DNA from: Somniosus microcephalus
Lineage: Eukaryota
DNA: 64,000 nt
Direction of reading: 5' to 3'
NCBI GenBank assembly: GCA_052327205.1
Contig: CM126210.1
Coordinates: forward strand, 164,362,001 to 164,426,000
The notes below the pieces were generated by a model. That model was not told where the DNA came from. It made no database searches and was given only the letters and a program-made list of their open reading frames with translations. Positions 14,603 through 54,744 of the stretch are shown here, one piece after another (position 1 is the first letter of the stretch; each line of letters begins with the position of its first letter). Made by a program: the position numbers and the translations under genes.

Positions 14603-16439
14603 GTATTCACAGTGGGTTTACTTCACTTTGGGCCTGAAATGCAATCTAGGTAAACAATTTAAAAGCATTTGCAACCATTTGTCCTGAAAGTTAAAGAACA
14701 GCTAATTAGTATTCTGATTGAGGATGAATTCTCTATTTAGCAGTAAATCGATATTGGCCCGGATTTTGCAGTCAGCAGTGAAGGAACGGCGCTCACTGTT
14801 CATTGCGCTGACAGCTGCCCGCAGACTTTTTGCGGGCTTTTGAGCGGCAACTTGCTGTCATCGGGCATCTGATCCAGCGCGGCGTCCCCTACAGGAGCTC
14901 TGTGGCTTGTGTGAGCAGGGAAAGCAACAGTGTATCTCCTCAACCAATCCAACTGAAGAATCCTCACTGAGACACACTGGGGGAAATTTTAACCTAAAAA
15001 AACAGGTGGGTTGTGGGTGTGTGGGTAGTTAAAGTGTTCAAAATGTGAATCCTGACCTGAACCCACCTCCAACCCGCCCACTTCCAGTTTTAACGGAGGC
15101 GGGACCGGGGACAAGCAGCAAATCCGCTGCCAGGAGGCAGGTCATCTATTTAAATATAAGGTGGCTGAAAGCCGCTGCTTTAACCGCCATTTTGAACTTA
15201 ACCTTCGCTGGTCAGGTTTTGCAGGCCTTGTGAAAGCCGTCAGCTAAAGCAAGGCGAGGACTGCTGGATCCAAGAGGTAAATGTCTTTACACTTACTTCC
15301 TGGATCCAGGGTCCTTACCTAACCCACCCCCTGTGATCAGAGACCCCCCCCCCCCACGAGGCCTCCCCCACCCCACCATACCATGCTCCTCTGGCCGCCG
15401 ATCTTTGCTGACATTCCCCCGCTCCTCTGGCCCTCCCCAAGCTGCGCCCGGCCCCCGATCCTTCAGCGAATGTCCCCTGCCCCGATCCTCCTTCGGCCGC
15501 CTTCTGGCCCACAATCGCTAATACACCACCTCCCCCACACTCCTCCAGCCGCCCCCTGGCCCCCACGCAATCGCTGCCTCCCAACTCTGTGCAGCCTAGT
15601 ACCGCTGGCCTACCTGCCCAGAGCCTGCCAGCCTCTCAATCTGGCTGGCTGTGGGTGGGAAATAAAGGCTGTAATGTATATACCTTTAAGGGGGGAACTA
15701 CTTTTTACAGCTCATGTATACTGTAGTACCGGCAGTGACCACACCTGTATATAGCACTGAGTAGTAATCTGTACAGTTCAGTTCCAGAGTGAGCCACGTT
15801 GAGTAAACACCTGTTGTACCGTTCTCCTGCAGTCTGTGTCTTACTACTGACAGACACAACATTGGCGACGAGGCAAATTCGATCCTACCTGCAACTCTGC
15901 ATCACCTCCCAGGGATTCGTTCCTGGAGACCAGTAGATCGGAGGTCAAGGCCAGAGACACGGGCGTCGACCACGGGCAACCGCCCAGTCATCCAGCAGAG
16001 ACTCGAGAATTGCGGGGGAGGCTGTTGAGAGCCAGGCTTGGCTTTCCAGTCGCGGTGGTCCAGCGAAACTGGCTGGCAACAGGTAGTGCGCAGACCCTTC
16101 CCGGACAGCGGCGGGCTAGAGCCCGACCGAGCGGCACAGCAAAGGGCTGAGCAGCGTCGATGGGAGAGAGAGAGAGAGGGCAGAGCGCACAGGGTGCAGC
16201 CGGTGTTCAGGGGCCGAGCAGCGTTGAGGAGAGGGAGAGAGACGCGCAGAAACCCGCGAGGCGCCGCCATTACCATGAGGACCGCCGAGAGCGGCGTTGG
16301 CAGCAGCGCAGGAGAAGCACGTGAAACCTACAGGGCGCCGCCATTGCCATGAGGACCGCCGAGAGCGGCGTTGGCAGCAGCGGGGGAGGAAGGAAAGCGC
16401 GGGAGATGCCATTTTAAGCCATTTTTAACCACACCCAAA

Positions 16440-19400: not shown

Positions 19401-22400
19401 CGAGGACCTGACCAAGAGCTGCTCAGGATGCCAGAAAGTCCAAAATGCACCACCACATGCCCCTCTACACCCATGGGCGTGGCCCTCATCTCCATGGCAA
19501 CGGTTGCATATTGATTTTGCTGGTCCATTCATGGACTCAATGTTTTTAATAGCCATGGATGCGCACTCGAAATGGCCTGAGGTCATCAAAATGTCCTCCA
19601 CCACCACGGAGAAAACTATTGCAGTCCTACGGACCATTTTTGCCAGGAACGGCTTGCCGGAACAGATCTGCTCCGATAACGGACCACAGTTTGTGTCCGA
19701 AGAGTTCCGGAGGTTTATGAAGAAGAATGGGGTAAGGCATTACACATCCACCCCGTATCATCCAGCCACAAATGGATTGGCTGAGAGGTTCGTACAAACC
19801 TTTAAGAAGGCAATAAATGCTATGTACAATGACAACATTCCGCTGCAGCATAAGGTGGACAATTTCCTGTTCGCCTACCGGAATGCGGCACATGCAGTCA
19901 CCAACCAGGCCCCGGCCATGATGTTCTTTAACCGAAGGTTAAGATCTCGCCTGGATTTGCTCAGACCAAACGTACGAAGAGATGTTGAGAGTAAGCAATT
20001 CCAGCACATCCATGAGAAGCCAACAAGGAGCTTCAATGTAGGGCAACCAGTCTTGGCCCGCGACTACCGAACAGAAAAATGGCAGCCAGGAACGATATGC
20101 ACACGGCAGGGCCCACTAATGTACACAGTGGACGTTGGGGAGAATATCGTGAGACGCCATGCTGACCAGATCCTAGAGTCACAGGAACAAGTCAACCCCA
20201 TGCCTCGCCCATACGTACCTGGTGAGGAACATAGAAGATAGGAGCAGGAGTAGGCCATTCGGCCCTTCGAGCCTGCTCCGCCATTCAATGAGATCATGGC
20301 TGATCATCCAAATTCAGTACCCTGTCCCTGCCTTCTCCCCATATCCCTTGATCCCTTTAGCCTCAAGAAATATATCCAACTCTTTCTTGAATATATTTAA
20401 TGAACTGGCCTCCACCGCCCTCTGTGGCAGAGAATTCCACAGGTTCACCACTCTCTGGGTGAAGAAGTTCCTCCTCATTTCAGTCCTAAATGGCTTACCC
20501 CTTATCCTTAGACTATGACCCCTGGTTCTGGACTCCCCGGCCATCTGAAACATCATTCCTGCATCTAGTCTGTCCAGACCTGACAGAATTTTATAGGTTT
20601 CGATGAGATCCCCTCTCAATCTTCTAAACTCCAGTGAGTATAAGCCCAATCGACACAATCTCTCCTCATACGTCATTCCTGCCATCCCAGGTATCAGCCT
20701 GGTGAATCTTCGCTGCACTCCCTCCATGGCAAGAACGTCCTTCCTCAGGTAAGGTGACCAAAACTGCACACAATACTCAAGGTGCGGTCTCACGAAGGCC
20801 CTGTACAACTGTAGCAAGACATCCTTGTTCCTGTACTCAAACACTCTTGCTACGAAGACCAACATACCATTTGCCTTCTTAACCGCCTGCTGCACCTGCA
20901 TGCTTACCTTCAGCGACTGGTGCACAATAACACGCAGGTCTCTTTGCACTTCTCCTTCTCCCAATCTATTGCCATTCAAATAATAATCTGCCTTCCTGTT
21001 TTTGCCACCAAAGTGGATAACCTCACATTTATCCACATTATAGTGCATTTGCCATGTTTCTGCCCAATCACCCAACCTGTCCAAATCATACTGGGGTTTC
21101 ACGACATCCTCCTCACAGCTTACCCTCCCACCAAGCTTTGTGTCATCTGCAAATTTGGAGATATTACATCCAATTCCCTCGTCCAGATCATTAATATATA
21201 TTGTGAACAGCTGGGGTCCTAGGACCGATCCTTGCGGTACCCCACTAGTCACTGCCTGCCACTCGGAAAACGACCCGTTTATTCCAACTCTTTGCTTTCT
21301 GTCCGCCAACCAGTTCTCTATCCAAGTCAATACCTTGCCCCCAATCCCATGTGCCTTAATTTTGCACGCTAATCTCTTGTGTGGGACCTTATCGAAAGCC
21401 TTCTGAAAGTCCAAATACACCACATCCACTGGTTCTCCCTTATCTATTTTACCAGTTACATCCTCAAAAAATTCCAGTAGATTAGTCAAGCATGATCTAC
21501 CTTTTGTAAATCCATGCTGACTTTGTCCGATCCTCTCATTGTTTTCCAAGTGCTCTGCTATTACATCTTTTATAATAGACTCCAGCATTTTCCCCACTAC
21601 CGATGTCAGGCTTACCGGCCTATGATTCCCCGCTTTTTCTCTACCACCTTTTTTGAATAGTGGGGTAACATTAGCTACCCTCCAATCCATGGGTACCGTT
21701 CCAGAGTCTATCGAGTTCTGGAAGATGACCAGCAATGCATCTACTATCTCTAGAGCCACTTCCTTCAGTACCCTGGGATGTAGACCATCAGGCCCTGGGG
21801 ATTTATCGGCCTTCAGTCCCATCAATTTTCCTAACACCATTTCCCTACAAATACTGATTTCTTTCAGTTCCTCCCTTTCAACAGACCCTATGTTCCCCGA
21901 CATCTCTGGGAGGTTATTTGTGTCCTCCTTTGTGAAGACAGAACCAAAGTATGTATTTAGTTGGTCTGCCATTTCCTTGTTTCCCATTATAAATTCCCCT
22001 GATTCTGACTGTAAGGGACCTATGCTTGACTTCACCAATCTTTTTCTCTTCACATATCTATAAAAGCTTTTACAGTCAGTTTTTATGTTCCCTGATAGCT
22101 TACTCTCATATTCTATTTTCCCTTTCTTAATTAATCCCTTTGTCCTCCTTTGTTGACTCCTAAACTGCTCCCAATCCTCAGGATTATTGCTTTTTCTAGC
22201 CAATTTATATGTCCTCTCCTTGGATCTTATGCTATCCCTAATTTCCCTTGTTAGCCACGGTTGAGTCACCTTTTTTGTTTTATTTTTATGCCAAACTGGG
22301 ATGAACAAATTCTGTAGCTCATCCATTCGGTCTTTGAATGTTTGCCATTGCCTATCCACTGTCAACCCTTTGAGTGCCATTCCCCAATCAATCCTACCCA

Positions 22401-22871
22401 ACTTGCTCCTCAGACCATCGTAGTTTCCTTTATTTAAATTGAGGACCCTTGTCTCTGAGTCAACTACTTCGTTCTCCATCTTAATGAAGAATTCGATCAT
22501 ATTATGATCGCTCCGACCCAAGGGGCCTCGTACAACAAGATTGCTAATTAATCCTTTCTCGTTACATAATACCCAGTCTAAGATGGCCTGATCTCTGGTT
22601 GGTTCCTCGACATATTGGTCCAGGAAACCATCCCGTAAACACTCCAGGAATTCCTCCTCCACAGTATTGTTACTAATTTGGTTGGCCCAATCTATATGTA
22701 GATTAAAGTCACCCATGATGACTGCTGTGCCCTTATTGCACGCTAGCATCGGAAGCTGATGACCCAACCGACGACAGGGTGCCAGAATCGCCTCCGCACC
22801 AAGAGCGAGACACTCTGGAAAGGCGCTATCCAGAAAGGATCAGAAAGCCTCCCCAAAGACTGAATATATAA
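16440..22871 (+). pseudogene. Gypsy gag-pol (two CCHC knuckles, protease, RT, RNase H, integrase), inactivated
   Basis: CYRCGRTTHDHNDC, CRQCGKVGHIARVC, LDTGS, CDAS, HIDF, SDNG and NGLAER motifs. Lesions: frameshift near 17140-17170, RT YLDN instead of YLDD, TGA at 18577, and a CR1 in the integrase tail, which resumes at 22744-22871 (...RRYPERIRKPPQRLNI*). Confidence 0.92.
20228..22743 (-). mobile_element. 5'-truncated young CR1 LINE with uninterrupted ORF2, inserted in the Gypsy integrase
   Basis: About 810 codons without a stop, with QHGF, DFQKAFD, PQGSVLGP and FADD; CR1 3'UTR and ttctatgt tail; homology to the first CR1 ends at 22743. Confidence 0.95.
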
Positions 22872-24065
22872 ATGGACTATTTTCAGCTAACGTTGTATGT
22901 TAAAAGTGTTAATTGTAATTAGTTTGATATTTAATTGTTAAGTGAGTGTTATGGTACTGTTAATCTAAAAGGGGAGGAATTGTAATGTATATACCTTTAA
23001 GGGGGGAACTACTTTTTACAGCTCATGTATACTGTAGTACCGGCAGTGACCACACCTGTATATAGCACTGAGTAGTAATCTGTACAGTTCAGTTCCAGAG
23101 TGAGCCACGTTGAGTAAACACCTGTTGTACCGTTCTCCTGCAGTCTGTGTCTTACTACTGACGGACACAACAAAGGCTTCCCATTCAAATCATTAAATGC
23201 CGAATATAACGGCAGGGCCTGTGGGAAAACATTTCTCCCAAGTTTCCCGACCGCTTCCGACCCCCACCCCCACGCTGCTCCCAACCCACCTTCCCCATTA
23301 AAATTCAGCCCACAGAGTCTAAATCAAGAAGTATAAATTAGAATATTTAATTCAATGTAAAATCATGTACAGAAAGGGAAATAGAGAGGGAAAGAAAGAT
23401 AGGGTTGAGAGAGATAAAGACAGAAAGAAAAAGTTTAAAAAAAAATTATTTTTGTTTTATTTCTCCAACAAAACTAAAGGAATGAGATTCCATACTTGTA
23501 AAATTAAATTTTCAGTGCCAGAGAGGTTGTTGGCAGTAATTAAGACTTATCACGCCGTTAAAAATTAATTTACACCTGATAAGCCCTAATTTTTTTTGGA
23601 GTGTTTAGTGGGTAACTAGTGGGTAAGTACTGCAACTTCACGCTCTTCATGTGTTCTAATGTTGAATCTATCGGCGAGGTACTGGAGTAGCAAAGCTTGT
23701 GGGGGAGTAGGGCAAATCGGACAGCAACTCCCAGATTTCTGCGTTTAACTGTGCATGTGCGGACGCCAGAAGTTGCTGTCCAATTTACCCCATAACGGTG
23801 AGTGCTGATAGCTATTCCTATTGCAAAATCCGGGTGATTATGTTATGCTGCCAAAATATCTTTAAATTGCTTAAAAAAGTTACAGCAATTTTGCCATTGC
23901 ACTGTATGCTGTTTATATAGAATAAGTAGTGAAAATGAATCCTGATAACTACCTGCATTTAGACGCTGCACTTTGAGCAGCAATGTGAGTACTGGTGGCT
24001 TCAAATAATTGAAAATTTCTCTTGGCAAATTATCACAAAGTAATTTTAAAATGTTTCTCCTGCAG

Positions 24066-24190: not shown

Positions 24191-25121
24191 GTAAGGGACT
24201 TTCCATAGAGATAAAAATAAAAACATAAACTGCTGGAAATACAAGCAGGTCCATTCGTATCTGAAAAGAAAAATGATATGTTAATACTTCAGGTAGTGCC
24301 CCTTCATCAGATGTTACAAAGAAAGGGTCATTTTCCAACTCTGTGCTCTGAGTGAGGAGTTTCACCTGCATCTTGGAAATTCAGTTGTACGCTACGCCTG
24401 AATTTCCAACCATTTACCTGAAGTGTTAACCTATCGTTTATCCTTTCAGGCCCTGGTGGATTTACTATAATTTAATTTACTTCGAAATTAGTTAGAAGAA
24501 AATAACAATTAAATGAGTGCAAAAGCAAACCTGGTTTCCGTGGCCCTTCTGAAGTTATGGAGGATGAACTCCTGGGTAAATTCATCCCATAGACTCTGGA
24601 TTGTCAGTAGAGGAAAAAAAGGAAGAATTTTGTTCACAGTGAAGTTTATTAGAACATGGATTATTACCACAAGTGTCTATTGAGGCAAAAACTGTAATAT
24701 AATTTAAAAGGGCATTGGCTAAGTGTTTGCGAGGTAAGAATATAAAAAGATACAGATAAACGGCAGAGAAATGAGACAGCTCCAGTTCAAGAGCTAGTAT
24801 CAGCACAGGTGCGTTGGCCTCAATGGTCTCCTTCTGTGCAATAAATCCTATGGGAGGGGCGATTTTCATCTACAAGTCTGTCAGTTCTAAACAGTTTAAA
24901 ACTGGTCCTAATCCAACCTGAATTTTAAGTTCAAATACTCTCCAGTCTAAGCTAACTTCAATAATTATTCATAACTCCAGAAGTAAAGTCAAACGTGTCT
25001 GAGGAAGATACTAGGAACATAGGAACAGGAGTAGGCCATTCAGCCCCTCGAGCCTGTTCCACCATTCAATGTGATCATGGCTGATCTGTATCCTAACTCC
25101 ATCCACCTGCCTTGGCTCCAT

Positions 25122-25991
25122 GGGGGAAAAATTCGGTTGGTTTGCGCCTCCTGTTAGCACCTTAAGAGGGCGCTAATGGGGCGCAAAGCAACTAGCGCCC
25201 GTACACGGCAATGTTTGCGCCGCTCACGAAATTAACTAGACATTTTGCGGCGGCGCTAAACACTACCGCCACGATCTCCTGCGTTGGCAACGCCCCGGTA
25301 GCGCCCCATACCCGATATTGAGTGGTGCCCTCTGCCTTACCACCTGCTGCTAGCAATGACAAGTTGAGGGGAGCGTTTTGCAGTCAGGAAGGGACTGGGG
25401 GAGCGTTATTTAAAGGCGACCGCTTCCTGCCTTTTTTTGTTGGTGACATTTTTGCACCACGCATTCTGAGAGAGAGAGAGAGAGACTTCTGGAGAGATTC
25501 AACACTGTGTGAAGGAGTTTTGGGTACTGAGCAGCACTTTGCAGGTTCATTTTGACTTGCCCTTCCTTGTATCGATTTAGAAGAGACTGTGGGGACTGCA
25601 CTCTGAGCTCGTTCCCTGGGTCTCTCCATTGTTCTTTCCAGCAGATTTGATGTACAGGTCTCGCCAGGCCGAGATTCAAGGCTGCAATGAGCAGGATGTG
25701 GGTGGAGAGCAAGATGAACCCTCCCCTTTAAGAACTGGCCAGCGCCATTGTGTCTGTGTTCCATTGCTGACTGACATCACATGAGCTTCGCCAGCACTCT
25801 GAGGTAGCGCCTCGCTCCTCGGCCTTTGCGTCTTAAGACAGGTGTGTAGCGCCTGATTTAGCGCTCCAATCGCCTCCAGAGGCGATAAAAGCCAAGTTTG
25901 CAGTCGGAGGCGATAATTAGCGCCAGGTGCTAATCTTTGCGCCCGGCCGACTAATTGCGCCCCAAATAGGGCGCTACTGAATTTCTCCCCC
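25122..25991. mobile_element. Harbinger-type MITE, next to a minus-strand CR1 3' tail fragment (about 25012-25120)
   Basis: TIR gggggaaaaattcggt / actgaatttctccccc; many gcgcc subterminal repeats. Confidence 0.72.
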
Positions 25992-26151
25992 ATGAACTTG
26001 AAGCATCCCCATTAGCAAATCTACTGGCACTAGTAAAGGGAAAGTGGGGCAAAAATAAATAATTAATGAGAACTAGCACAAAGGTTGACAAAAAAAAAAT
26101 CTGCCGTTTAGGCTTTCATGAGACTGGGCCATAACAGGTCTAAAACACCTA

Positions 26152-26849
26152 GGCCTAGAAATTCGGTGGGGTTAGCGCCCAATTAGAGGCGTTAGAGGGT
26201 CTTGCGCCGGAATTATAGCTGGTAACGAAATTGCGTTGGGCCCTACCATCGGCGTTAGCCGGTAGCGCTGCGCCAGCACTGATGACGTCATCGGTGTGCA
26301 CAGCGTCCAGGTTGCCGTGGTAACCCGGCCCCAAGCCCAAATTCAGTTGCGGCCGCCTCGCCCGTGGCAGCCGCAACCAACGATTGTTGAAAGGGATGTT
26401 ACACACCTTTGCGCCGGCGCATAAAGGTGGAGCGGCAGCCGGCCGCTTTCCCGGCGGCCGCCTGCCCGCACCTCCCTCCCCGGACTCCTCCACCACCCCC
26501 CCCGCGGCACTGATGTGTGTGGCCCGCGAGCCCGGCTCTTCCCCGAGGTGCCGGGCTCATTTGTCGGGTGAATCGACCGGCCAGCGGTCGGCTGCAGGCA
26601 GCTCCTCCTTAACAGAAGGAGGAGGCCTGCAGTACCCCAGCCTGCCGCACCGCCTCGGGTGCCGCAGCGGGGGATTAGCGCCTCAAAACTGCACTGAACG
26701 CCCATAGTGAGGCGCAAAAACCCTCCATTAGCGCCCGCCGCCGTCTGGGCCCGGGGCAACCGAATTTTCGTCGGGTGCAGCGGCATTAACGCCGGTGCAA
26801 AATTTCGGGCGCTAAAGCCCTGGCGGACCCACAACCGAATTTCTAGGCC
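26152..26849. mobile_element. Harbinger-type MITE, GC- and CpG-rich
   Basis: Perfect 16-bp TIR ggcctagaaattcggt / accgaatttctaggcc; 3-bp TSD CTA. Confidence 0.85.
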
Positions 26850-27060
26850 CTACTTTTGAAATCAGTAGGTCTTTTAAAGGCTCTTTTGCCTAAACGTGCA
26901 CCCAGCAGCTCCTTGTTTGCACCCAAAATCAGGACTTAAGGTACACACAAATTTGGCCCCTATGATTCTATAAAGGGAAATTTTAGACATGATGATGCAC
27001 CAGTGAGTGAGATGATGTTTTATGCTTTGTTATTTACAAATTCTCCATGTTTTAAATTTT

Positions 27061-33871: not shown

Positions 33872-34774
33872 AGTACGATAGCAAAATACTGCGGAGATGC
33901 TGGAAATCCGAAATAACAACAGAAAATGCTGGAAAAACTCAGCAGGCCAGGCAACATCCGTGGAGAGAAAATAGTCAACGTTTCGAGTCAAGCTCTTTGT
34001 CAAGACTGGAAAGGCACAGGAAATGAAATAGATTGAAAGGCCAGGCTGGGAGAGAACAAAAGAGAAATGAAGAGACATTAAGAGGTATTCAAAACGAGAC
34101 GAGATGGTGATAGGACTAGTGGAGACAAAAGACGGCTTCAGATTAGATGTGAAATGTGCTGGCAGAATGAGACACAGCTGCCACGTGGGAGAGAAAAAAA
34201 AGAGAGAAAAGAGAAAAAAAGAGGGGGCGGGGGGAAAGGGCCAAAACAAAGGTGGGGATAAAAAATAAGTAAAAATGTAATGGGGGCCGAGGTTATGATC
34301 TAAAATTGTTGAACTCGATAGAGAGTCCAGAAGGCTGTAAAGTGCCTAATCGGAAGATGAGGTGCTGTTCCTCGAGTTTACGCTGAGCTTCCGTGGAACA
34401 ATGCAAGAGCCCAAGTACAGTGAGGTCTGAGTGGGAATGGGGCGGTGAATTAAAATGACAGGCGACCGGAAGCTCGGAGTCACACTTACGGACTGAACGG
34501 AGGTGTTCCGCAAAGCGGTCACCCATTCTGTGTTTGGTCTCCCCAATGTAGAGGAGACCACATCGTGAGCAGCGAATACAGTATACTAGATTGCAAGAAG
34601 TACAAGTAAATCGCTGTTTCACCTGGAAGGGTTGTTTGGGGCCCTGGACAGTGGGAAGGGGGGAGGTATAAGGGCAGGTGTTGCATCTCCTGCGTTTGAC
34701 TCGAAACGTTGACTATTTTCTCTCCACGGATGTTGCCTGGCCTGCTGAGTTTTTCCAGCATTTTCTGTCGTTAT
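33872..34774 (-). mobile_element. Penelope-like element, GIY-YIG end with an inverted pLTR copy at the truncated 5' end
   Basis: ORF 34293..34622 (NLVYCIRC..C..LYIGETK); about 33910-33991 is inverted at about 34697-34777; 14-bp TSD ttccaatattcacc. Confidence 0.9.
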
Positions 34775-35524
34775 TTCCAATATTCACCCCCATATGTAAC
34801 CAATTGCTTTAAGTAGGCACATCTCTTTAAGTTTGAGATGCAAGCCAGATTTTCTACATCCTCCATGAGGCTAACTCTTGGCCAAAGGCCAAAGTTATGC
34901 TGGGAGTTTATGCTAATTATTCAAATAAGTTGACTCCATAACACTGCAGACAGTCAGCTCAGTGTGCTTTTGGCTAGCTTTGCTCTGGCAACTAGCCATT
35001 CCATGCTCCATTTTAGCAGGATTACAAAATCAGCCTTATAGCACCCTCAGAAATTTCTTAAATACTTCATGTAGAATGAATTACATTGCAGAGCAGTGAC
35101 AGTAGGTATGTAGGAAAATGCAGCAGTTATTTTGTGCACAACTAGATCCTACAAACAACAAATGAGATAAATAACCAGTTAATGAGCTATATAAAAGCAC
35201 ATTCTTTCTCAAATCTGTTTTGTGTTGGTGATATTTGTTGGGGGAAGAATATTGAAGAGTCTGCTTTTCTTTGAATATTGCCATAGGGTCTTTAGGGCTG
35301 AATTTTCCTCCAGTAGATTTACGCCCACAAATTGAAGCACAGCAGGGTTGTAGTCAACTTACATCGGCGTAATTTAGCCTCGGAAGACTTTGTAGCTTTA
35401 CTTATGCAGTACTGAATCAATTTTTCTCACAATTTCTTTTGGTTTTTTTTGTATCACTGAGACGTGCACTAAACTTAACCAAATTGCAGTCAGTCTCTGA
35501 ACCTGGCAGGATCAAGCAGCTGCA

Positions 35525-39061: not shown

Positions 39062-39283
39062 ACAATAGCAAAATACTGTGGATGCTGGAAATCTGAAATA
39101 ACAACAGAAAATGCTGGAAATACTCAGCAGGCCAGGCAGCATCCGTGAAGAGAGAAACAGAGTTAACGTTTCAGGTCTGGGACCAGTTCTGATGAAGGGT
39201 CCCAGACCTGAAACGTTAACTCTGTTTCTCTCTCCACGGATGCTGCCTGGCCTGCTGAGTATTTCCAGCATTTTCTGTTGTTA
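39062..39283. mobile_element. Non-coding fold-back Penelope insertion made only of pLTR sequence
   Basis: 87-bp inverted arms 39098-39184 and 39198-39284 with one mismatch; 14-bp TSD taactgaatatagt. Confidence 0.9.
39184..39224 (+). ncRNA. Minimal type I hammerhead ribozyme motif
   Basis: cagtt CTGATGA agggtc cca gacct GAAA cgtta actct: intact core, stem II, and palindromic AACGTT stem III. Confidence 0.75.
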
Positions 39284-39332
39284 TAACTGAATATAGTGCT
39301 CAGTTTTAGATTAAAACTGTTCCATAATGTAT

Positions 39333-39681
39333 GAGGAACAGCACCTCATCTTTCGATTAGGCACTTTACAGCCTTCTGGACTCAACATTGAGTTCAACAA
39401 TTTCAGACTATAACCCCTGCCCCTATTTTTTCAGGTGGTGGTTGTTGATGATTCTGCCATCCCCATGGCAACATTTAACCACTCCTGCCTTCCACCCTAT
39501 CAAAGACTTTTTTCCCTTCCTCCCCCCTCCCTTTCCCTGCCTCTGCACCTGCTTAAAACCTGTTAAACCTATAACTGTTTTCAGTTCTGACGAAGGGTCA
39601 CAGACCTGAAACGTTAACTCTGTTTCTCTCTCCACGGATGCTGCCTGACCTGCTGAGTGTTTCCAGCATTTTCTGTTGTTA
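39333..39681 (+). mobile_element. Penelope 3' fragment
   Basis: EEQHLIFRLGTLQPSGLNIEFNNFR C-terminus plus pLTR; 13-bp TSD ttccataatgtat. Confidence 0.88.
39582..39622 (+). ncRNA. Minimal type I hammerhead ribozyme motif
   Basis: cagtt CTGACGA agggtc aca gacct GAAA cgtta actct. Confidence 0.75.
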
Positions 39682-39914
39682 TTCCATAATGTATCTATTG
39701 AGTATACTGTCTTCACATCATGAACAGCCTTTGCTAAGTGTGCATTCATAAACCATCTTTAGCATACTGCAGCATGGTTCCTGCTTCACAAAAGTATTAA
39801 AGATGGTAGCCTAGAGTTTCCACATGATTTCCGCCCAGATATCAGCGTAATTTGGGTGTAATCGAATGAAATAGTGCTAAGTCTGTTTGCAACCTTGGTG
39901 TCATATTTGATCAC

Positions 39915-42545: not shown

Positions 42546-44356
42546 CATCTGTACCAACACTGAAGTGAGTTCCCCTGCATTCGGACCACTACTTTCATAA
42601 AATAAAGGATTAAACTACTCCCTGAATTCTCAACTTTCACTTGCCTTCATAAACAAAACATTATTTCTCAAAATTATAATAACAGTGCAGCGAGACAAAG
42701 GCACGTGTTATAAAGGGCATTGTAAAAGTGCATTGGTATTGTATTCAGCTTGAAATTGGTAATTAAGTATAGGATGTCAATTGAGGAGGTAAATTAATAT
42801 AAAACATAAAAGATAAAGGAAATCAATTGGATTCATAAAGTGAGATTTCATCCTTCTACCTTTCTACTGCGTTATGAGTTGTAACTGATTTATATTGTGG
42901 CGGAGCCACCAAAGGACTCAGGGCGGTTGTACATAATTCCTTTAACAGTGTTGCGGTGAAGATAAATTCACATCTAAACCGTGTAAAAGTAAAAAGATGC
43001 AGTTTATTATCAGAGCTCTGGAAGAAGCGTCTCAGACCCTTCTCGTTCTCTCTTGGTTGGTACAGCTTTTTATTCTATTTTCATCCAATCACATTGTATT
43101 ACAATAATCACCTGATCATATTGTATTACAATAATCACCTGATCACATATGGATTCTTTTCAGTATTAGTAAAGGTTAGTTACATCTTACTATGCCTTTG
43201 GTTACAGGTCAAATTCCCATGACCCCTATATTCTGCTGTGTCTACAATTTTTAGCTAAAGCAGCATTTTCCTTATCGCTTACGCAAAACGCACATATTCT
43301 GTCTGGTCCCACAACTGCGTCTTATCTTGGTTTTTCGAAGCTTCTCACATTGTTCTTTGTTTAGTTTTGCCTTTTTACGTAAGTCAATTTTTATTGTGAT
43401 ATTTCTTATCTCAACCTGGTTTCTTTTAGTCACTTTCACATGACCCCACTCCTTTGTTCTGATTTGAAGCACTAAGAGGATTTGCTTTTTAACCCTTTCA
43501 ATCCCTCCTGTTGGTCCCGCACCAAATTTAAACTTTGGCTAGGGATACCAACTTCTCTTCCACTTTTACCATCCCCGGGATTACTCCTATACTGATGGCT
43601 TAAACTAAGTTTGTCTTTCCCCTCTGTCTATCTTGTTGTGCTCAGTGTGGTAGTCTGTGCAAATGACTAAAGAACTTTACATGTATGTTACTATCGCTAT
43701 CAGTTCATTATCCCGCATTAACTGTTCGGTTTCTGGCTCAATATTGATTATATCAACTGTAGCAACCGGCACTATTCGGGACACAGCTGCCCTACAGCAT
43801 GCTTTCAGAACCGTCATTATAACACAAAATAATACTACAACTATAATGACAATTATAAGTCCTTATCATTTCTATTTGTCTTGATATTCGACCTTGCTGG
43901 CTTTTATGCTATCTTTTTCCGCTTGCCTGTTGTCAGTCCCTGGTCTAAGAATTAAAACCCATCTTTGAATCTAACAGCTATTTCTTACAATTCCCTTTTT
44001 TTGAGAAGGAAATATCCTTATTGACTTCTCACAATCGACTCTTGACTAATCTAGCTAGCTCTTATTGCTCTCTCAACTTGGGCGTTAGTTAGTAGGGAGT
44101 CTTGAAGATTTCTCCCTTTTTTACAGTCCATTCCTTTGAGGAGAAGGAGCAACCTCTGACCCCTTACTCAAATTCAATTCACTGTTCCGGTGTTCCAATT
44201 CTGCCCCGTCTGGGTATCCTCTGTTTCTTCTATCTTTCCTGATGTTACCCCGCCTGGGGTCTCCTCTACATTGCTTCGGATCTTCTCTTTCGGTGTGCTC
44301 AATTAATTTGTTAGTGCTTGTCAGTCATGGGCATGAGTACCCAATTGGCTTATGTA

Positions 44357-44760
44357 TCAAAATCTTACTACACACGCTACATATATCAAATACACTATCA
44401 TTACAAGTTGGATAACTACCAGAGCATGTGAAATAATACAAACCTAAGGGTGTGCTGATGTATTAAGCCCAATATCCCATCAATGTGAGTTGTCCCCTAT
44501 GCTGTCAATTTCAATATCTATTCTCGAGTTGTCTTGCTCCAAAACATAAAAATGCTTTAGGGAGGAGTTCAGTCGCATCATGAGCTCACTGAAACCCACA
44601 AATAACAGGGGAATGTCATATCCGAGTATCCGAATTGTGCCACATAATTGTGTAGCTCATACTTAAAAACGTGTTGGTTGATGGGACAGGTCCTGTTAGA
44701 CCCGTAAAGCATGGTAATTGCAGTAGTAGTGACACAGGAGGCACCACTAAAATCACCTCA
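44357..44760 (-). pseudogene. env C-terminal remnant (Cys-rich segment, heptad repeat, membrane-proximal region, transmembrane helix)
   Basis: CVTTTAITMLYGSNRTCPI, then a frameshift, then DIPLLFVGFSELMMRLNSSLKHFYVLEQDNSRIDIEIDSIGDNSH*WDIGLNTSAHP*VCIISHALVVIQLVMIVYLIYVACVVRF. The two stops sit where Trp codons would fit. Confidence 0.7.
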
Positions 44761-45389
44761 TGCTGGATTCGTACTGGTTTTTCCCACGCTCTGTTACCTA
44801 CAAAACACAATTATTACAGTCACAGTTAAATTCAGTCTTACAATCATATCAAATACATTACAGTTCAACATTTAATCAACAAATCATGGATTTAAAAGAT
44901 TCTCCAGATCTCTTTTTTGCTCGTATCCATCTTGTGGATAATTCTTACTAAACATGATTTCTCCTTGGCCCGCAATTGTCCCAATCCAGATTCCATGTAA
45001 CTCTCCACTTCAACTTCAATTTCAATCCCTCTAACAGGTACCAGTGTGTTTAACTCTATTCTGATTGTTTCATTAATTAAATAGTTTCTCGATGGAGTAT
45101 GTGTCAATGCTTTAAAAGTTGTCTCACTCTCCTGAGCCACATTAACCATGTTTTGCTGTTGTCAAGTAACTGAGCATGTCTGAGACCCGTTCTTCAGTGC
45201 AAATTCACCATACATTCCTGGATGGTAATTACTTCATACGTAACAAATCACATTTGCACACTCATACCGGTATCTCAATATCATGCCACCCATGCCATCC
45301 GATACAAGCCTTTCTCGGGCTTTCAGGTATCTTATCGAAAGATTGTAGTCGTCTAATGGCTGAATACTTCTTCAAGGTCTTACTTGCTG

Positions 45390-45947
45390 CTATTTAAGCT
45401 TTGACCTGAGCTCTTGGCCCTCTGCCTGTAATCTGGCCACTTCAGCCTGCTTGATTTCAAGCTGATTTTTGGCAGTAACTAGCTCTACATTAATCTCTTC
45501 CATTTCTTTCTCCTGAAGTGCTCTTTCCTGTAGTTGTGCTTTCACTAATGCAGTTTTCTCAGCTATTAGGCTCTCTAAAAGCATAATCTGTTGCTTAAAG
45601 TTATTCTCAAGATTCAACTTTTCTTTTTCCACGGTCTCTATTGTTGCCTGACTTTTCTCAATGTTTTCCGAAAACTGCTTTAACCTGTCAACTTTTTCAA
45701 GTAAAGCATCTTCCTTCTCAGCTAGAAGGGAGGCAAAAGAATTTTCATTCTGCTTTGACTTCATTAATTTATTCTCCAAGTTTGAAACCAGTCCTTCCTT
45801 GGTCTGGCAATCTACCTGGAGATTTAGTAAGCGGTCGTTCAAATTATTTTCTTCTTGTTTCAGATCATCGAGTTCAGACTGATTTTTTTTCAGTTTTGTT
45901 TCTGCTCTTTTAAACTGCCTGAGAGCATTTTGCAAGTTCTCATTCAA
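45390..45947 (-). CDS. 185-codon coiled-coil ORF inside the ERV-like element; function unknown
   Basis: Continuous E/K/Q/L heptads with no Pro. There is no ATG, so the start is probably frameshifted. Confidence 0.55.
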   Translation of the reverse strand: MNENLQNALRQFKRAETKLKKNQSELDDLKQEENNLNDRLLNLQVDCQTKEGLVSNLENKLMKSKQNENSFASLLAEKEDALLEKVDRLKQFSENIEKSQATIETVEKEKLNLENNFKQQIMLLESLIAEKTALVKAQLQERALQEKEMEEINVELVTAKNQLEIKQAEVARLQAEGQELRSKLK

Positions 45948-47668
45948 TAGTGTAATTCTCCTGTTTCAATCTTACACTCTCAATCACTTTCCTTTAATTA
46001 CCATTCATATCTTATTCATGAGTCCTGGAAAAACTTTACTGTCCAGTACAATATTTAAGATAGAAAACATAGATCAAACGTTCTCACTTGATCCAAGTTA
46101 TTAACACATTTTATTATCATTATTTTTAGAGGATCTTTTATTTTCCCAAAAGTAACCAAATATATAGTGCCTGAGTCCATTTTGTCATTTCAAAATTATC
46201 CCAAAATCCAAATAGCAGTACAGTTGAACTGACAGGTTTTGTCAATGTTCAATTTCATCTCTATCAATTTATCTTCCATTTCCAATTTCAGAAACAAGTG
46301 ATTCTCAGGCTAGGTAGCTTAAACAGTGTTTTTAATATTAGAGACAGAAATGCTGCAATTAGTTTACAAGGTAACTTCCATATAACAGAAGAAAGAAAGG
46401 AATCCATTGTGACTCTGCTTAGAGCCCAAGGGATTAATTTATCAAATCTTAATTTTCCCTCTGTCACTGTGGTGAAATAATAACTTAAAATTAAGAAACT
46501 TAAATTTAATAATGTCCAATATCTTTAGATTTCATACTAAAGTTGTTGCTTGGTGAACTTAAACAGCTGTCAGTGGAAAGGGTTAACTCCTTTGCAGGTT
46601 TTTAAGAAGGTGGAGCAAAACATTATCAAATGCACGCAACTGCGTCAATTCACGTAAATCAAAAAAAAGAACTTTCCTGATCAAAAGACAGTTGTGTTTT
46701 CACACTTTAACTAAACACGAACACGGAGGTAATATGGACAGTGAAGAAAGACAGGATTGAGCAAAGTTCACAAGCTAAGTAAGTCTTTGTAAGGAACTCT
46801 GCAACTATCGGATGTTCTTGCGGAGTGGAGTTATCTTATTCAATGCGGTCTACACAAATTTACACCAACCAAAATTTCACCGTGGCCACAATGAAAGTCT
46901 GGTTTTAATAGGTTAATTAACCTCATAACTCCAATTTAATCCAAATCTTGTAAACATTCAAATTAATTTTCTTCCAAGCACATTGGCAACTGTAACTTTA
47001 AGGCAGAAGCTTATCTTTTGTAAAACTATGAACAGACAAACAAAACAAAATAGCACATTCTTGCAGAAAACAGTAAATTACGTCATATTTTCTTATCAAA
47101 TCAAACTGCTTTAGAAGATTTCACCATAGCAACCGCGACTCCAAGGTTAAATCTTAGACTGAAACTTAATCTTCTGTTATACAAACTTTTTGTTGCTCTT
47201 CAGTTTTTACACACCAGCTTAACTTAAATTAGTTCAAAGGTTTTTTTTTCAATTCTTGGGGCACAATCTTATTCGCACATGCTTCCAAAATCCAAGACAA
47301 GACAAAAGTTTTTAAACGCTTTTAACACAGAGAAGTGGGTGGAGCTAAAACAAACATAACAGAATCTTTCTTTTAAGGAACATCTAATCAGACAAAAGAA
47401 ATACTGTAACTTCTTAAACATTCATAGTCAGGAAAACTTTCACACAAACTGAAATTCCAGCATTTTTTTAAGGTTCCTTTCACTCAGAAAATCTTGTGTT
47501 TTATTTGTCTTAGCACAAATGTTAATAACTTCCATGTCAGTAAAACTTTAAGTTTCTCTTTTTTTCCTCTTTTTCCATCGGTGTCCCTATCTTCTTTCTC
47601 CTTGTTTATCCTTTAGTTTTGCCAATTTTTTAAATCTAATTTTGTCACCTGCTCTTGTAGATTTTCGT

Positions 47669-47887
47669 TTAAATTTCCTCGGTCTTTTGAATGACCGTTA
47701 CTAATTGGTGTACCAATATAACTCCCGCTTTCTTTTGTGTCTCCCACCATTCTTGTTGGTACACTGGTACCTTAGACGGATCCCATCCATCCTTTTTCAT
47801 CTTATCTATCAAACCTTTCTGATCGTCAGCATAGAGCCAACTCAATGAACCCGGCGGTCCCCAATCTGGGCCTCCGCCTTCTGCCAT
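47669..47887 (-). pseudogene. Probable gag N-terminal remnant
   Basis: ATG-initiated ORF about 520 nt after the PBS (atcATGg): MAEGGGPDWGPPGSLSWLY...; the call rests on position only. Confidence 0.45.
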
Positions 47888-49371
47888 GATGTATTATTTT
47901 TGATACTAGTCTACCGCGTTCCGGTCCTCCCTAGTAACTCATTCTCAGAGGTCTACCTATCATCCACCACTAGTGATGGCGGTCCTGACTTGTAACTATC
48001 TCGCTGTCAGAGGTGATTATTTCACTTGTAGCCGTTAATACATTATTACCATACGTCGCGTCATGCAATACAACAGAGAGACTGTTAGCCTGTCTCGGAT
48101 TCCCAACTAACTCTGGCCTTCACGTGGGGCCCAATTGCCCTCTTAATTCCGACTCAGTATGGGTCCTCGAGACATTTACATTCCGAAATAACACATCAGA
48201 TGTAAATCAACTTAACCACTTATTTAGACTTATCCACTATTTGAACTTATCCACTATTTAAACTGCATCTCTCACCCGTCACGGATACCAGATTCTTTTG
48301 GTACTGCGTCGCTGTCACACCGCCCTTCCGAGTGATCCAATTTCTGGACGGTCAAGATTTGACTACTCGCCCCGTTCACTGGTACAGGCAGTCTTCCAGC
48401 TCCGAAGTACCCTGCTCACAGCGCCAATTTGTTGCGGTGAAAATAAATTCACATCTAAACCGTGTAAAAGTAAAAAGATGCAGTTTATTATCAGAGCTCT
48501 GGGAGAAGAGTCTCAGACCCCGCGGTCTGTGTACGCACCTTCTCATTCTCTCTTGGTTGGTACAGCTTTTTATTCTATTTTCATCCAATCACATTGTATT
48601 ACAATAATCACCTGATCACATTGTATTACAATAATCACCTGATCACATATGGATTCTTTTCAGTATTAGTAAAGGTTAGTTACATCTTACTATGCCTTTG
48701 GTTACAGGTCAAATTCCCATGACCCCTATATTCTGCTGTGTCTACAATTTTTAGCTAAAGCAGCATATTCCTTATCGCTTACGCAAAACGCACATATTCT
48801 GTCTGGTCCCACAACTGCGTCTTATCTTGGTTTTTCGAAGCTTCTCACATTGTTCTTTGTTTAGTTTTGCCTTTTTACGTAAGTCAATTTTTATTGTGAT
48901 ATTTCTTATCTCAACCTGGTTTCTTTTAGTCACTTTCACATGACCCCACTCCTTTGTTCTGATTTTAAGCACTGAGAGGAATTGCTTTTTAACCCTTTCA
49001 ACAGCAATGTAGTTACTGTCTGTGCCTGTACCTTTAATTATACTGTTTGACTGTATAATGTCTAGTTACCTTTACAACACGGTTTCAACGTGATGACTTC
49101 ATGCCGTTAGTCACGTGATGCCCCAATGGCGGGAAGAACGTGATGACGTCACGACATCAGTCTCCTGACCAGAGGATCAGTCCTCGTGGAGCCCTCAAGG
49201 AGAGTAGACCTGTTATTGATGTGTTCTAGCAGTTTCCAGTTTAAACTCATTTGGTTTCATTAAAGTTCATTAATTTAATTACCTGAGTCGAACTCAGTCT
49301 TTTTGATAGGAACCTCCATTCCTACATTGGTGACCCCGACTTCTACGAACGATTTTCGTGGAAGATTCGAC

Positions 49372-52300
49372 ATGGACACGAACGCCGTCACGCTGAAACT
49401 GCCACAGTTCTGGGAGCAACAACCAGACGCCTGGTTCACCCAGGCTGAAGCCCAGTTCGCCATTCGGAACATCATCGCGGATCAGACCCATTATTATTAC
49501 GTGGTCTCCGCCCTCGACAGCGCAACTGCATCACGGATCATCAGCCTCATCGGTAGTCCTCCTACTGACAGCAAGTATGATGCAATTAAGGCGCGGTTGC
49601 TTCAGGTTTTCGGGCTATCAAAGTCGGAGCGTGCTCGCCGGCTCATCACGCTGCCCAGCCTCGGGGACTCCAAACCGTCTGAGCTCATGAGCCAAATACT
49701 CACGCTCTTGGGTGCTGAACCGGAATGTTTCATCTTCCGGGAGCTTTTCCTCTATCAACTGCCTGAACAGGTTCAGGCTGCCCTAGCCAGCTCCGACATT
49801 ACTGACTGCGCCAAGCTTGCGGCCGAAGCCGATAAGATTTTCACGGTTACCCAGCAGTGCTGTGCGGCCACGAGGCACCCACCCCCACAGACGCGGTCCC
49901 GGCTTCTCCTACAGCGGGCTGGTGCTCCTACCACACCCGTTTTGGCATGAAAGCACGATGCTGCCGTTCCCCCTGCAGTTTTTCCCCCCAAAAGAAACAA
50001 GAAGGCGTAGGCGGCGTCCCTGGCGACGGATGATCAAGTCTAACGGGCATTCCGCGGTGGCGATGGCCGTCGGTTCTATGGGGAAACTCCTCTATATCAC
50101 CGATTCCCACTCAGGCCGCCATTTCCTTTGTGACACCGGGGCGCAGTGTAGCATTCTACCTGCGTCGAAGCTCGACACGCAGACTGGGAACCTCGGTTTT
50201 TCCCTCGTAGCGGCTAATGGCGCAGCTATTCGAACATTCCGAAAGCAGCGGGTCGAAGTCTATTTCGGCGGTCAGTGCTTCTTTTCGGATTTCATCACGG
50301 CTACAGTCTCACAGCCTATCCTAGGGGCAGATTTTCTGTGTGCCAACAGCCTACTAGTCGATGTCCGGCAGCGCCGGCTGATCAACGCGGCCACCTTCCA
50401 CTCGATTCCGTGCTTCCACTGTACCTCCGTGGCGCGCTCCACTGCCTGTACTTTCCCTCCTCCAGATGACTTCACGTGGCTCCTCGGGGAGTTTCCGGAG
50501 CTGACAAGGCCCAACTTCTCCTCTTCAGCGACGAAACATGGTGTTGAACATCACATCACTACTACTGGCTCCCCGGTTTATGTGCGGGCTAGAAGGCTCG
50601 AACCCGGCAAGCTTGCAGCTGTGAAGGCGGAGTTTGCCACAATGGAGTGGCTCGGCATCATTAGGTGATCGAAGAGTCCCTGGTCTTCGCCTCTTCACAT
50701 CGTGCCGAAACCAGGCGGCGGCTGGCGGCCATGCGGTGACTACCGACGCCTCAACGACGCCACCACTCCGGATCGGTACCCGATCCCGCATATCCAGGAC
50801 TTCTTGGCCCACTTGGCGGGAAATTCTATCTTCTCTAAAGTCGACCTCGTCCGTGGACATCACCAGGTTCCAGTGCACCTACAAGACATCCCGAAAACCG
50901 CAGTCATCACCCCTTTTGGCCTCTTTGAGTTCCTGCGGATGCCGTTTGGCTTAAAGAACGCAGCACAGGCGTTCCAGCATTTAATGGACTCCATTCTTCG
51001 AGACCTGCGTTTCCTTTTCATCTACCTTGATGACATACTCATCGCCAGTGCCAGCAAGGAGGAGCACATCTCCCATTTGCGTTCCCTCTTTACGCGCCTC
51101 AGCCAACATGGTTTAATCATCAACCCGGCCAAGTGCCAGTTCGGCCTGCAACAAATCGACTTCCTGGGACATCGCATAACATCGGACGGCGCCGTCCCTT
51201 TGGCGACGAAGGTTGAGGCGGTTACTTCTTTCCCGTGGCCGTCGACAGTCCAGGCCTTGCAGGAGTTCCTGGGGATGGTCAACTTCTACCACTGTTTCGT
51301 CCCCAAGGCAGCTCAACTCATGCAACCCTTGTTCGGGGCCCTCAAGGGCAAGTCCGGTAAAGACCCAATCAGCTGGACAGCTGAAATGATCCAGGCATTC
51401 GGCGATACCAAGAACGCTTTGGCCAACGCAACCATGCTGGCGCACCCACTTCCAGATGCTACTATCGCCCTTACCACCGACGCGTCAAACTACGCCATCG
51501 GTGCAGTGCAAGAACAGTGGCTCAATGGCACGTGGCAACCGCTGGCGTTTTTCAGCCGTCAATTGCGAACAAATGAAAAAAAGTACAGCACCTTCGATAG
51601 GGAACTACTGGCCCTTTTCCTCGCCATTCGCCATTTCCGGTTTTTATTGGAGGGGCGCCCCTTCACTGCTTTTGTCGACCACAAACCCCTTACATTTGCC
51701 ATGGCCAAGACCACCGAACCGTGGTCCGCTCATCAACAACGTCGCTTGACGTTCATTTCCGAATTCACCACGGACATTCAACATGTGTCTGGTAAGGACA
51801 ACCTGGTGGCAGATTGCCTCTCCCATGCGACGGTCCACACGGTGCACCTGGGAATCGACTACGCCCTCATGGCGGCAGATCAAGTTTCGGATTCGGAGGT
51901 CCAATCATATAGAACCGTTCCCTCTAGCTTCCAAGCGACCGACGTTGTCTTCCAGGCCGCAGGTGCCACGCTCCTTTGCAACGTTTCCATGGGAGTTCCT
52001 CATCCCATAATGCCAGTTGCATGGCGCCAGAGGGTTTTTGATGCCATACACGGGTTGTCGCACCCAGGGATGAAGGCTTCGCAATGGCTTATGTCAGCCA
52101 AGTTCATCTGGAAAGGTATGCACATCGATGTCCGTGACTGGGCTAATACCTGCGTCGTATGCCAGAAGGCCAAAGTCCAGCGTCATGTCAAGGCTCCAGT
52201 GGCTGCATTCACTGTTCCGGAGCGTTGTTTCGACCACGTGCATGTGGACCTCGTGGGGCCACTTCCGCCTTCTCAGGGTTATACTCATCTCCTCACCATA

Positions 52301-53314
52301 GTGGACCGCACCACTAGGTGGCCAGAGGCAATTCCTTTGGTTTCCACCACGTCGGCAGACGTTGCTAGAGCTTTCACCTCCTGTTGGGTTGCCCGTTTTG
52401 GGGTACCGGCGGACATCTCCTCTGACCGCGGGCCACAATTTTCCTCAGATCTTTGTAACGCTGTGGCTCAGGGGCTCGCTACCAAACTTCATCGCACCAC
52501 CGCCTATCATCCGCAGACAAATGGCCTTTGCAAGCGATTCCACAGGTCGCTTAAAGCCTCTCTTCGGGCCAGTCTTCAAGGCGCAGGATGGGTGGACAGA
52601 CTCCCATGGGTCCTGTTGGGTCTCCGTACAGCGCCCAAAGATGATCTACAATTGTCTTCAGCTGAACTCGTCTATGGCCAGCTGCTCCGCGTACCAGGAG
52701 ATTTCCTCCCTTCTCCCACAGAGCCATGGTCCGCCTCCCGGCAACTTGTTCGCCACCAAGAAGCGGCCAGATGCTTTGCTCCGATACCTACATCCAATCA
52801 CGGTTTGCAGACCTCCTACGTGCCACCGGGACTGAAGAATGTGGAGTATGTCTTCACCCGACACGACGCTCACCGGGATCCGCTCAAGCCCCCTTACACT
52901 GGTCCTTTCCGCGTCATCGAACCAGGAGACAAATCCTTTTTGGTCGACGTCGGAGGGAAACCGGATCACATCTCGGTGGACCGCTTGAAGCCGGCTCACC
53001 TGGACCTGGACCACCCTGTCGTAGTCGCCCAACCATCCAAACATGGCCGACCGCCTGTTGCCGCCGCACCTGATCAACCAAAGCCGCCTGACAACTCGAC
53101 CGTGCTCGCCGCGCCTGCTCAGCCGCCACCGACTGCCAATTCGACCACCGGTCGTCAACTTCCTCTACCAGGGTATCGAAGTCGATCGGACAGGCTCATC
53201 AGGCCTCCTCCTCGCCTCACCTTTTCTGTTAAAGACAATTCTGGGGGGGCACATGTGACAGAGCCACCAAAGGACTCAGAGCGGTTGTACATAATTCCTT
53301 TAACAGCAATGTAG
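49372..53314 (+). pseudogene. CsRN1-like gag-pol, inactivated
   Basis: KLPQFWEQQPDAWFTQAEAQF; CHCC knuckle (CSYHTRFG..RCC..PC) out of frame; CDTGA; YLDD; TDAS. TGA at 50666, and integrase NGLCKRF has lost the catalytic Glu. Confidence 0.9.
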
Positions 53315-54744
53315 TTACTCTCTGTGCCTGTACCTTTAATTACACTGTTTGACTGTACAATGCCTAGTTACCTTTACAACACGGTTTCAACGTGATGACG
53401 TCATGCCGTTAGTCACGTGATGCCCCAATGGCGGGAAGAACGTGATGACGTCATGACGTCCGTCTCCTGACCAGAGGATCAGTCCTCATGGAGCCCTCAA
53501 GGTGAGTAGACCTGTTATTGATGTGTTCTAGCAGTTTCCAGTTTAAACTTGTTTGGTTTCATTAAAGTTCATTAATTTAATTACCTGAGTCGAACTCAGT
53601 CTTTTTGATAGGAACCTCCATTCCTACAATATATATATATTGTCACGTTGCATTCACACTCCGTCAGTGGAACATAGTGGCAATCGTAAACTCGCAAACT
53701 TGCTTCAGGTTTGGAGACCCCATTCACACAGACACCTCCAAAATCTGATCAGAGTTGGTGGGAATTCCATTGGCCATGACACTGGAACACATGCATAAAG
53801 TTAGGTAAATCTTTGAGGCATTTAAATTATTTTCTATTTTATCCCAGAAAGGACAACCAATGGAGCACTAATTTCAGATATTAGTGACAATTTCTCCTAC
53901 CTAACACTGGTAAATGTTGCCCTTTGGGAAGACGTAAGCCAAGGTCTGAGATCTGCACTGTGGATCTGAAAGCACCAGGTGCGAAGATGTTAAAGGACGG
54001 AGTCTGGAAATTACTTTGGCCCATCAGTGACCCTGTTTACACATCGGCGTGGAGCTTCCGCTAGGGGCGCAATTGGCAAAATGCACCCAGAATGTGCTGG
54101 ACACTGTTGGTTTTGCCAAGGTGAAGTTACGTTGAAGTTTCCACGCAAACTCATTAGCATAAGCACCAACGTAAAATGTCCCCAGAATCAGCGTAATCAA
54201 GCAACGTAATCGATTCGTGACTGATACAGGCAATCTCCAGCATCACAGAGAGAAGTGGGAGTGCCAGGAAATTAACCATTCTTCAATTGACTGATTTATG
54301 CTCTTGGTCTTACTTTTCAATTGATTTCAATTCACTGCTTTCATCTGCCCTTAAGTACATCGGACCTGTGACCAGCAGGTGTGAAGCCACACAAGTGTGT
54401 CCTGCTCTGTTGTAATTGACTGAATTTAGACTAATTTAAAGTAATTGCAGGAGCAAGGGAAGCAGACCCGGGTCAGGCTTGAATTGATTGCTGGTCACTG
54501 CAGGTACAGGTGGTTAACGCTGAATTCATGTGACTACGGGTGCCTGTGCGCCCGAGAATCTGGGCGCAATGTGATGAACACTATCCAATGGGTACAATCG
54601 GCAGAAACTCGCCATTCTGACTTGGGGGTGTCGCCAGTTTTGTGAGCGGGGATTGGTTTGGGCCAATGGACTTTTTATCATGGATACTCCAGCGTAAAGT
54701 ATTATGGGTGCAACTCACTTATGTTTAAAATTCCACAATCTTTA

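Follow-up and report, generated by a model that had tools for sequence, protein, structure and literature searches.

The window analysed here is a stretch of 64,000 nucleotides from Somniosus microcephalus (assembly GCA_052327205.1, contig CM126210.1, positions 164,362,001 to 164,426,000 of the forward strand). At 42949-49000 it carries, on the minus strand, a provirus-like element of 6,052 bp flanked by long terminal repeats (LTRs). The 5' LTR (48430-49000, minus strand, 571 bp) has TG...CA ends and contains a 27-bp tandem repeat, and the 3' LTR (42949-43500, minus strand, 552 bp) is 19 nt shorter. The two LTRs are identical in 542 of 551 aligned columns (98.4%); the nine substitutions are five transitions and four transversions, which gives a Kimura two-parameter distance of 0.0165, and there is a single 19-nt indel. 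The primer-binding site (48409-48426, minus strand) is located 3 nt downstream of the 5' LTR, and its first 12 nt are complementary to the tRNA end Ser_AGA_UGA_CGA_2 in the supplementary list of PMC13524379. A 16-mer primer match with up to three mismatches was reached in 38 of 100 shuffles, that is, not beyond chance alone; the assignment to tRNA-Ser is therefore based on the exact match and its placement beside the LTR, not on the 16-mer similarity. A short polypurine tract (43501-43514, minus strand, 10 of 14 purines) adjoins the 3' LTR, and a target-site duplication, ACAG, borders the element on the left (42945-42948) and on the right (49001-49004). The duplication is 4 bp long with canonical LTR ends, and a 5-bp reading needs the loss of a terminal base from one LTR. 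All of the cis signals that the original prediction called intact are thus present, and its description of the element holds; the nesting and the 191-codon coiled-coil frame described below were absent from it. The 27-bp tandem repeat occurs in 2.3 copies in both LTRs (43088-43148 and 48588-48648), and the leader carries a 17-bp repeat in 3.2 copies (48209-48264). No tRNA gene and no Rfam match were found anywhere in the 64 kb.

The element is nested in an older Ty3/Gypsy element on the plus strand (42896-53628), whose 5' LTR it interrupts. The first part of the interrupted LTR lies at 42896-42948 and the remainder at 49005-49326, and it is followed by gag, protease and an 881-codon frame encoding reverse transcriptase (RT) along with RNase H and integrase (49279-53314) and by the 3' LTR (53254-53628), all on the plus strand. 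This 3' LTR has a single ACAG at the place that corresponds to the duplication, which means that the empty insertion site is visible inside the window. The LTRs of the host element differ in 15 of 375 columns (4.0%, interval 2.2-6.6%), more than those of the nested element, and this agrees with the required order of events. The nesting thus provides a clean internal control for decay that preceded the insertion. The host element is nearly intact (DUF7041 gag, protease, RT, RNase H and integrase, with one stop at 50666-50668) and itself sits in an AT-repeat target.

In the interior of the nested element (43501-48429, 4,929 nt, stops read as X), none of the six frames matched a pol-type Pfam family at E ≤ 0.1. 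As positive controls, two pol frames of Gypsy elements and one frame of a long interspersed element (LINE), all from the same window, scored strongly in Pfam, so that the reported lack of a detectable protease, RT or integrase is confirmed by a scan with working controls. Near the 5' end, an ATG-started frame of 72 codons (47669-47887, minus strand) could be a gag start or a leader open reading frame by its position only; no family was matched in Pfam, NCBIfam and PDB-type searches. Of the gag-like stub proposed earlier, the location at the gag start is therefore retained, and the kinship with gag finds no family match. It is followed by an AT-rich spacer without a long frame (45966-47668, minus strand), predicted at 1.6 kb and measured at 1,703 nt with 32.5% GC. 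Next comes a stop-free frame of 191 codons (45393-45965, minus strand), which has no start codon at its 5' end. Its heptad character is clear: the power at period 3.5 is 15.4, as against less than 0.7 at six other periods, and its length was reached by 8 of 1000 local shuffles. Against SMC_prok_B it gave an E value of 3.3e-6 and 25 bits (cut-off 567), and all of its matches were generic; SMC models match any long coiled coil. The frame probably represents the helical N-terminal part of gag ("smc"-like), and no capsid match that would tie it to gag was observed. The adjoining broken coding-like stretch (44790-45389, minus strand) may come from gag or the 5' part of env, and attempts at linking it to the env relatives gave nothing. 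In the 3' tail, between env and the purine tract, there is a second membrane-helix-like stretch ending in CC (43788-43862, minus strand). This is possibly the remnant of an accessory gene as in complex fish retroviruses.

The 3' env remnant (about 44360-44750, minus strand), which is assigned to the F type below, consists of a Cys-containing strand, a heptad and a membrane helix (44443-44378). Its damage comprises a frame break near 44630, stops at 44482-44480 and 44446-44444, and an internal deletion of about 30 codons relative to its relatives. The motifs, heptad and transmembrane helix named in the original prediction were all found. As also predicted, inspection by eye revealed neither CKS-17 nor CX6CC in the surviving part; both are likewise absent, by eye, from the env relatives, and no Pfam coat domain was matched. 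The cleavage site, the fusion peptide and most of the ectodomain are undetectable in the window. A phmmer search with 44312-44656 against 1.84 billion proteins returned four matches, three of them env-like (P0006, P0007 and P0008; E 1.4e-6 to 3e-4). The top match, P0005 (E 5.8e-8), is an NHL-repeat protein with no tblastn match in the element, and was dropped. The three env-like proteins are 32-39% identical to the remnant over 85-91 residues, with heptad, Trp/His-Pro block and membrane helix inside the aligned part. For two of the three, the alignment extends to the upstream Cys-containing piece if the gap, of some 30 codons, is bridged (pairwise E 4e-4). A further search with the alignment of the relatives retrieved two proteins among 7,239 candidates: P0008, which is LOC144608216 from the skate Rhinoraja longicauda, and P0009, which is UPI00398E4DEC from the sawshark Pristiophorus japonicus. 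P0009 overlaps both P0007 (76% over 70 residues) and P0008 (56% over 103 residues), and spans the cleavage site and the ectodomain core. Homolog word-index searches with pieces of the window gave 0 of 25 and 0 of 14 candidates.

The remnant and the chondrichthyan env-like proteins (P0006-P0009) have a C-terminal layout in common, in the order Cys strand, FGY, heptad, Trp/His-Pro block and membrane helix. The relatives, which are too distant to be the helper, carry RxRR followed by a more polar peptide, where lokiretrovirus Env has an RXKR site and a hydrophobic fusion peptide; in the window this region is undetectable. In P0008, too, the central ectodomain is missing, and its sequence picks up again at almost the same residue as the env of the window does after its deletion (near 44660). 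This common point of resumption may be a shared breakpoint, a splice site or a gene-model artefact. Residues of about 85-165 of P0008 resemble an immunoglobulin V-type domain by eye, without a Pfam match. No description of this env family was found in the literature searched, in which subscription papers and repeat databases were thinly covered; the family may be filed under ERV3 or ERV4 in repeat databases. Envs with a similar Trp/His-Pro block may occur in ERV3/4 elements of birds and reptiles.

The F-likeness of the remnant follows from a chain of relationships, from the remnant to P0007 and P0008, from these to P0009, and from P0009 to clusters of the F type. In the Atlas, which contains only clusters of at least 50 members and favours insect families, the features of P0009 scored 0.94-0.95 for Baculo_F/Gypsy Env and 0.92 for Fusion_gly (paramyxovirus F). 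Among its structure rows, the top four of ten were of the F type, with TM values of 0.45-0.57. Through these relatives, and so indirectly, the env of the parent is likely to have been a paramyxovirus-F-like class I fusogen.

The aligned env tail contains two stops in 87 codons, with the frame break and the deletions left out of the count. The number of stops expected since insertion is 0.07 from the element's own LTRs (P = 0.002), and 0.16 if the element is given the age of its host (P = 0.012, rising to 0.03 at the upper limit). In the older host, 1,175 codons contain one internal stop, and the difference from the env tail gives a Fisher P of 0.013. This decay test concerns one locus and few events. 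Because the stops exceed the expectation from the insertion age, and because a frame break, a deletion and the loss of pol are added to them, the template seems to have been defective already; having no enzymes of its own, it would therefore have been copied by the Gag and Pol of a relative. In this mechanism, the defective copy would be transcribed from its LTR, and the transcript packaged, reverse-transcribed from tRNA-Ser and integrated by the proteins of an intact relative. Reverse transcription would have made the two LTRs identical again, with the dead genes copied together with the rest. The integration into the LTR of the older Gypsy element left a clean duplication. We consider it highly probable that an already defective copy was mobilised in this way. 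The statement that internal decay is far above LTR divergence is supported as regards the two env stops (P 0.002-0.03). As to the claim of a non-autonomous derivative mobilised in trans by an active helper, the loss of pol and the damage to env before insertion speak for it, and the word "active" is unsupported.

Stops number 0 in the 191 codons of the coiled-coil frame and two in the 87 env codons, a difference that is not significant (P = 0.10); selection might have preserved the coiled coil once env was dead. APOBEC-type editing was considered as the source of the two stops and dropped, since two sites are uninformative. The locus is probably inert now. The age of the insertion depends on the substitution rate. 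The LTR distance corresponds to 37.5 million years if sharks change at 2.2e-10 per site per year, as PMC4422223 assumes, to 3.75 million years at a mammalian rate, and to about 12 million generations at 7e-10 per generation (rate from PMC10587355). The insertion was originally described as recent; this is doubtful, as it would be about 37 million years old at the assumed shark rate.

A lokiretrovirus-like envelope had been proposed. What defines lokiretroviruses (Loki) is the placement of their RT, together with a dual RNase H and an Env resembling F, and some have a coiled-coil smc ahead of gag; none of six cartilaginous-fish genomes was positive in the screen (PMC7947760). The tether with a second RNase H and the CGIN1-like integrase by which membership would be judged are absent from the pol-less element. 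The supplement of that paper, in its available part, holds 23 Loki Env proteins, and the comparison was made at motif level, without alignment scores or a tree; line breaks in the file may split matches. WWD and CVTT do not occur in the file; the two occurrences of HPW and the single one of YCV fall in RT alignments. By eye, 13 of the 23 proteins (from lamprey, coelacanth and teleosts) belong to one uniform family with a hydrophobic fusion peptide. Eleven of these 13 reach the C-terminal ectodomain; there they have a Trp-Leu strand, and the membrane-proximal block of heptad, Trp and His-Pro is absent. The 12-mer of the primer site of the window likewise does not occur in this supplement, which shows two other primer types. 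In addition, F-likeness does not single out Loki, because an Env core is common to foamy viruses and paramyxovirus F (PMC11468914), and because the errantivirus Env is also of the F type (PMC13524379). Lokiretroviruses have in common with the element an F-type Env, the layout of LTR, primer site and purine tract, and perhaps a coiled-coil frame ahead of or in gag; they differ in the Env sequence family (at motif level) and in the primer types, with no positives in the six chondrichthyan genomes. The element would behave as an F-envelope provirus, but the lokiretrovirus label is not supported by these motifs.

As a whole, the reading that we moderately favour is that the element, itself non-autonomous, derives from a vertebrate endogenous retrovirus (ERV) with an F-type, non-Loki envelope. 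As to the lineage of its parent, a clade III retrovirus of the SnRV-like kind whose gag carried a coiled coil is a tentative, weak inference, to which we give slightly less than an even chance. SnRV-like and other clade III ERVs (CmiERV lineage I, XtERV-S, Ovex1 and ERV3/ERV4) resemble the element in the Ser primer (CmiERV and XtERV-S) and in the existence of deleted copies that retain only cis signals, and may do so in a coiled-coil Gag. In the SnRV-like provirus of chimaera, the primer site is of the Ser type and follows a spacer of 3 nt, as in the element, and by eye the start of its gag is charged and helical (PMC4422223). Gag of both SnRV and Ovex1 has coiled coils (PMC2717909), and XtERV-S has the Ser primer, with deleted class III copies in which only cis signals are retained (PMC8278194). 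The Ser primer is a shared trait of the element, CmiERV lineage I and XtERV-S, not a defining one, and the isoacceptor end differs from that of CmiERV. RT loci of clade III number 2,843 in six chondrichthyan genomes, versus 2,018 of clade I (PMC11089739). The helper might instead be a class I (epsilon-like) or foamy-like ERV that carried or captured an F-type env, and the 4-bp duplication would then be the mark of its integrase. The duplication is typically 4 bp in ERV1 and 5 bp in ERV3/ERV4, with exceptions noted (PMC4299795); epsilon-like lineages are known in chimaera (PMC4422223), ERVs of fish and amphibians often show recombination between env and pol (10.1101/2021.11.23.469661), and the A-rich sense strand and the possible 3' accessory remnant would suit such a helper. 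Foamy viruses share an Env core with paramyxovirus F (PMC11468914), but the env of the element has no sequence match to foamy Env in Pfam or PDB, the foamy-like elements of fish and amphibians in PMC5512871 are primed by Lys or Asn and not by Ser, and CKS-17 and CX6CC are absent. We therefore regard a class I or foamy-like helper as unlikely, though less so than the alternatives that follow.

If the element were a non-autonomous lokiretrovirus derivative, with no precedent in cartilaginous fish, whose Env has diverged and whose smc is the coiled-coil frame, this would account for the F-type env reached through P0009 and for the weak match to SMC_prok_B, given that smc lies ahead of gag in some Loki and that Loki primer sites vary between the two types observed (PMC7947760). 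Against the motif differences described above, the missing primer 12-mer, the negative screen and the generic nature of SMC matches, this is improbable. If the element were instead derived from an env-bearing, errantivirus-like Ty3/Gypsy element and not from a retrovirus, the Baculo_F and Gypsy Env rows that are the best Atlas rows of P0009 would be explained. However, the restriction of the Atlas to larger clusters biases it to insect families, and both named env relatives are chondrichthyan. Errantiviruses share with the element an F-type Env and, frequently in insects, a tRNA-Ser primer, but they are reported from invertebrates only, and no intact vertebrate element homologous to them was found, according to PMC13524379; this origin is quite improbable. 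Finally, the absence of a sister copy in the window and the low substitution rates of sharks (PMC10587355) are compatible with an old, once-intact provirus that decayed in place while gene conversion kept its LTRs alike. Because of the nesting, however, the element cannot be older than its host, whose LTRs differ in 15 of 375 columns, and the frames of that older host are still near-intact, so that decay in place is the least probable of these explanations.

Several results weigh against the favoured reading of a vertebrate ERV derivative with an F-type, non-Loki envelope. The SnRV-like provirus of chimaera has an env that by eye is of the CKS-17 type, unlike that of the window (PMC4422223); the Envs of CmiERV and XtERV-S are class I-like. 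The 4-bp duplication of the element does not fit the 5-bp type of ERV3/ERV4, and its coiled coil suits the Loki "smc" as well as a clade III gag. No second copy is present in the 64-kb window, so that spread in trans rests on one locus. With respect to the envelope, no match was obtained for the remnant or its relatives in Pfam (PF00523 included), NCBIfam and PDB. The proposed relation of env to the F proteins of paramyxo- and pneumoviruses thus stands through the relatives and lacks a direct family match; the profile comparison with fusion glycoproteins that had been recommended found F-similarity via P0009 only. The Atlas model of P0009 has a predicted TM score of 0.42. For P0006, the C-terminal relative, class III fusogens were the nearest in score (0.93). 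AlphaFold models were poor, with a mean confidence (pLDDT) of 42.6 for a two-row alignment and 33.4 for P0009 alone, and Foldseek gave no match at E ≤ 0.001 for either model.

Taken alone, the locus is an ordinary, decayed transposable element, and its value is that of a lead. Judging from the sequences compared, the env family likely belongs to cartilaginous fish, is of the F type and is distinct from the Loki Env. Whether retroviral envelopes had a single origin or multiple origins is unsettled (PMC7947760, PMC9040795), and a shark and skate family of F-type env that is neither Loki nor foamy makes this question testable. It is a rather doubtful, though not far-fetched, proposal that the family marks an undescribed chondrichthyan retrovirus lineage, in which a third vertebrate family of F-type Env, beside those of Loki and foamy viruses, is combined with a canonical clade III pol. 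If this were true, the F-type fusogen would be ancestral to retroviruses and later replaced by the gamma-type Env, which would speak against an independent acquisition of F-type Env by Loki and by canonical retroviruses. Copies that carry pol could be sought with the LTR as a ready probe, and their RT would place the env family.

Outside the nested pair, the window contains a second Ty3/Gypsy element (16353-20241, plus strand); its gag has a zinc knuckle, and its pol is interrupted by a single stop. Repeats of 192 bp at 15670-15861 and 22981-23172 are possibly parts of its LTRs, with a LINE inserted. A LINE ORF2 stretch (20314-22839, minus strand) is open over 841 codons, comprises part of the endonuclease and the RT, and is 91% identical to a copy at 1-616. 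An 87-bp inverted repeat and related copies (39094-39284, 39596-39686 and 34293-34781) lie beside nuclease-like frames; we take these copies to resemble Penelope-type termini. The repeats at 14190-14290 and 39090-39290 are presumably of an elasmobranch type; together with the named env relatives, they make it plausible from the sequence that the host is a shark or ray. No host gene was recognised: among 77 stop-free frames outside repeats, there was one weak coiled-coil match only. This match (14342-14650, plus strand) is to intermediate filament with an E value of 0.003, below the cut-off, and the frame is possibly a host exon with a coiled coil. The region 25001-27000 is GC-rich (53-57%) with no family match, and might be a promoter island.

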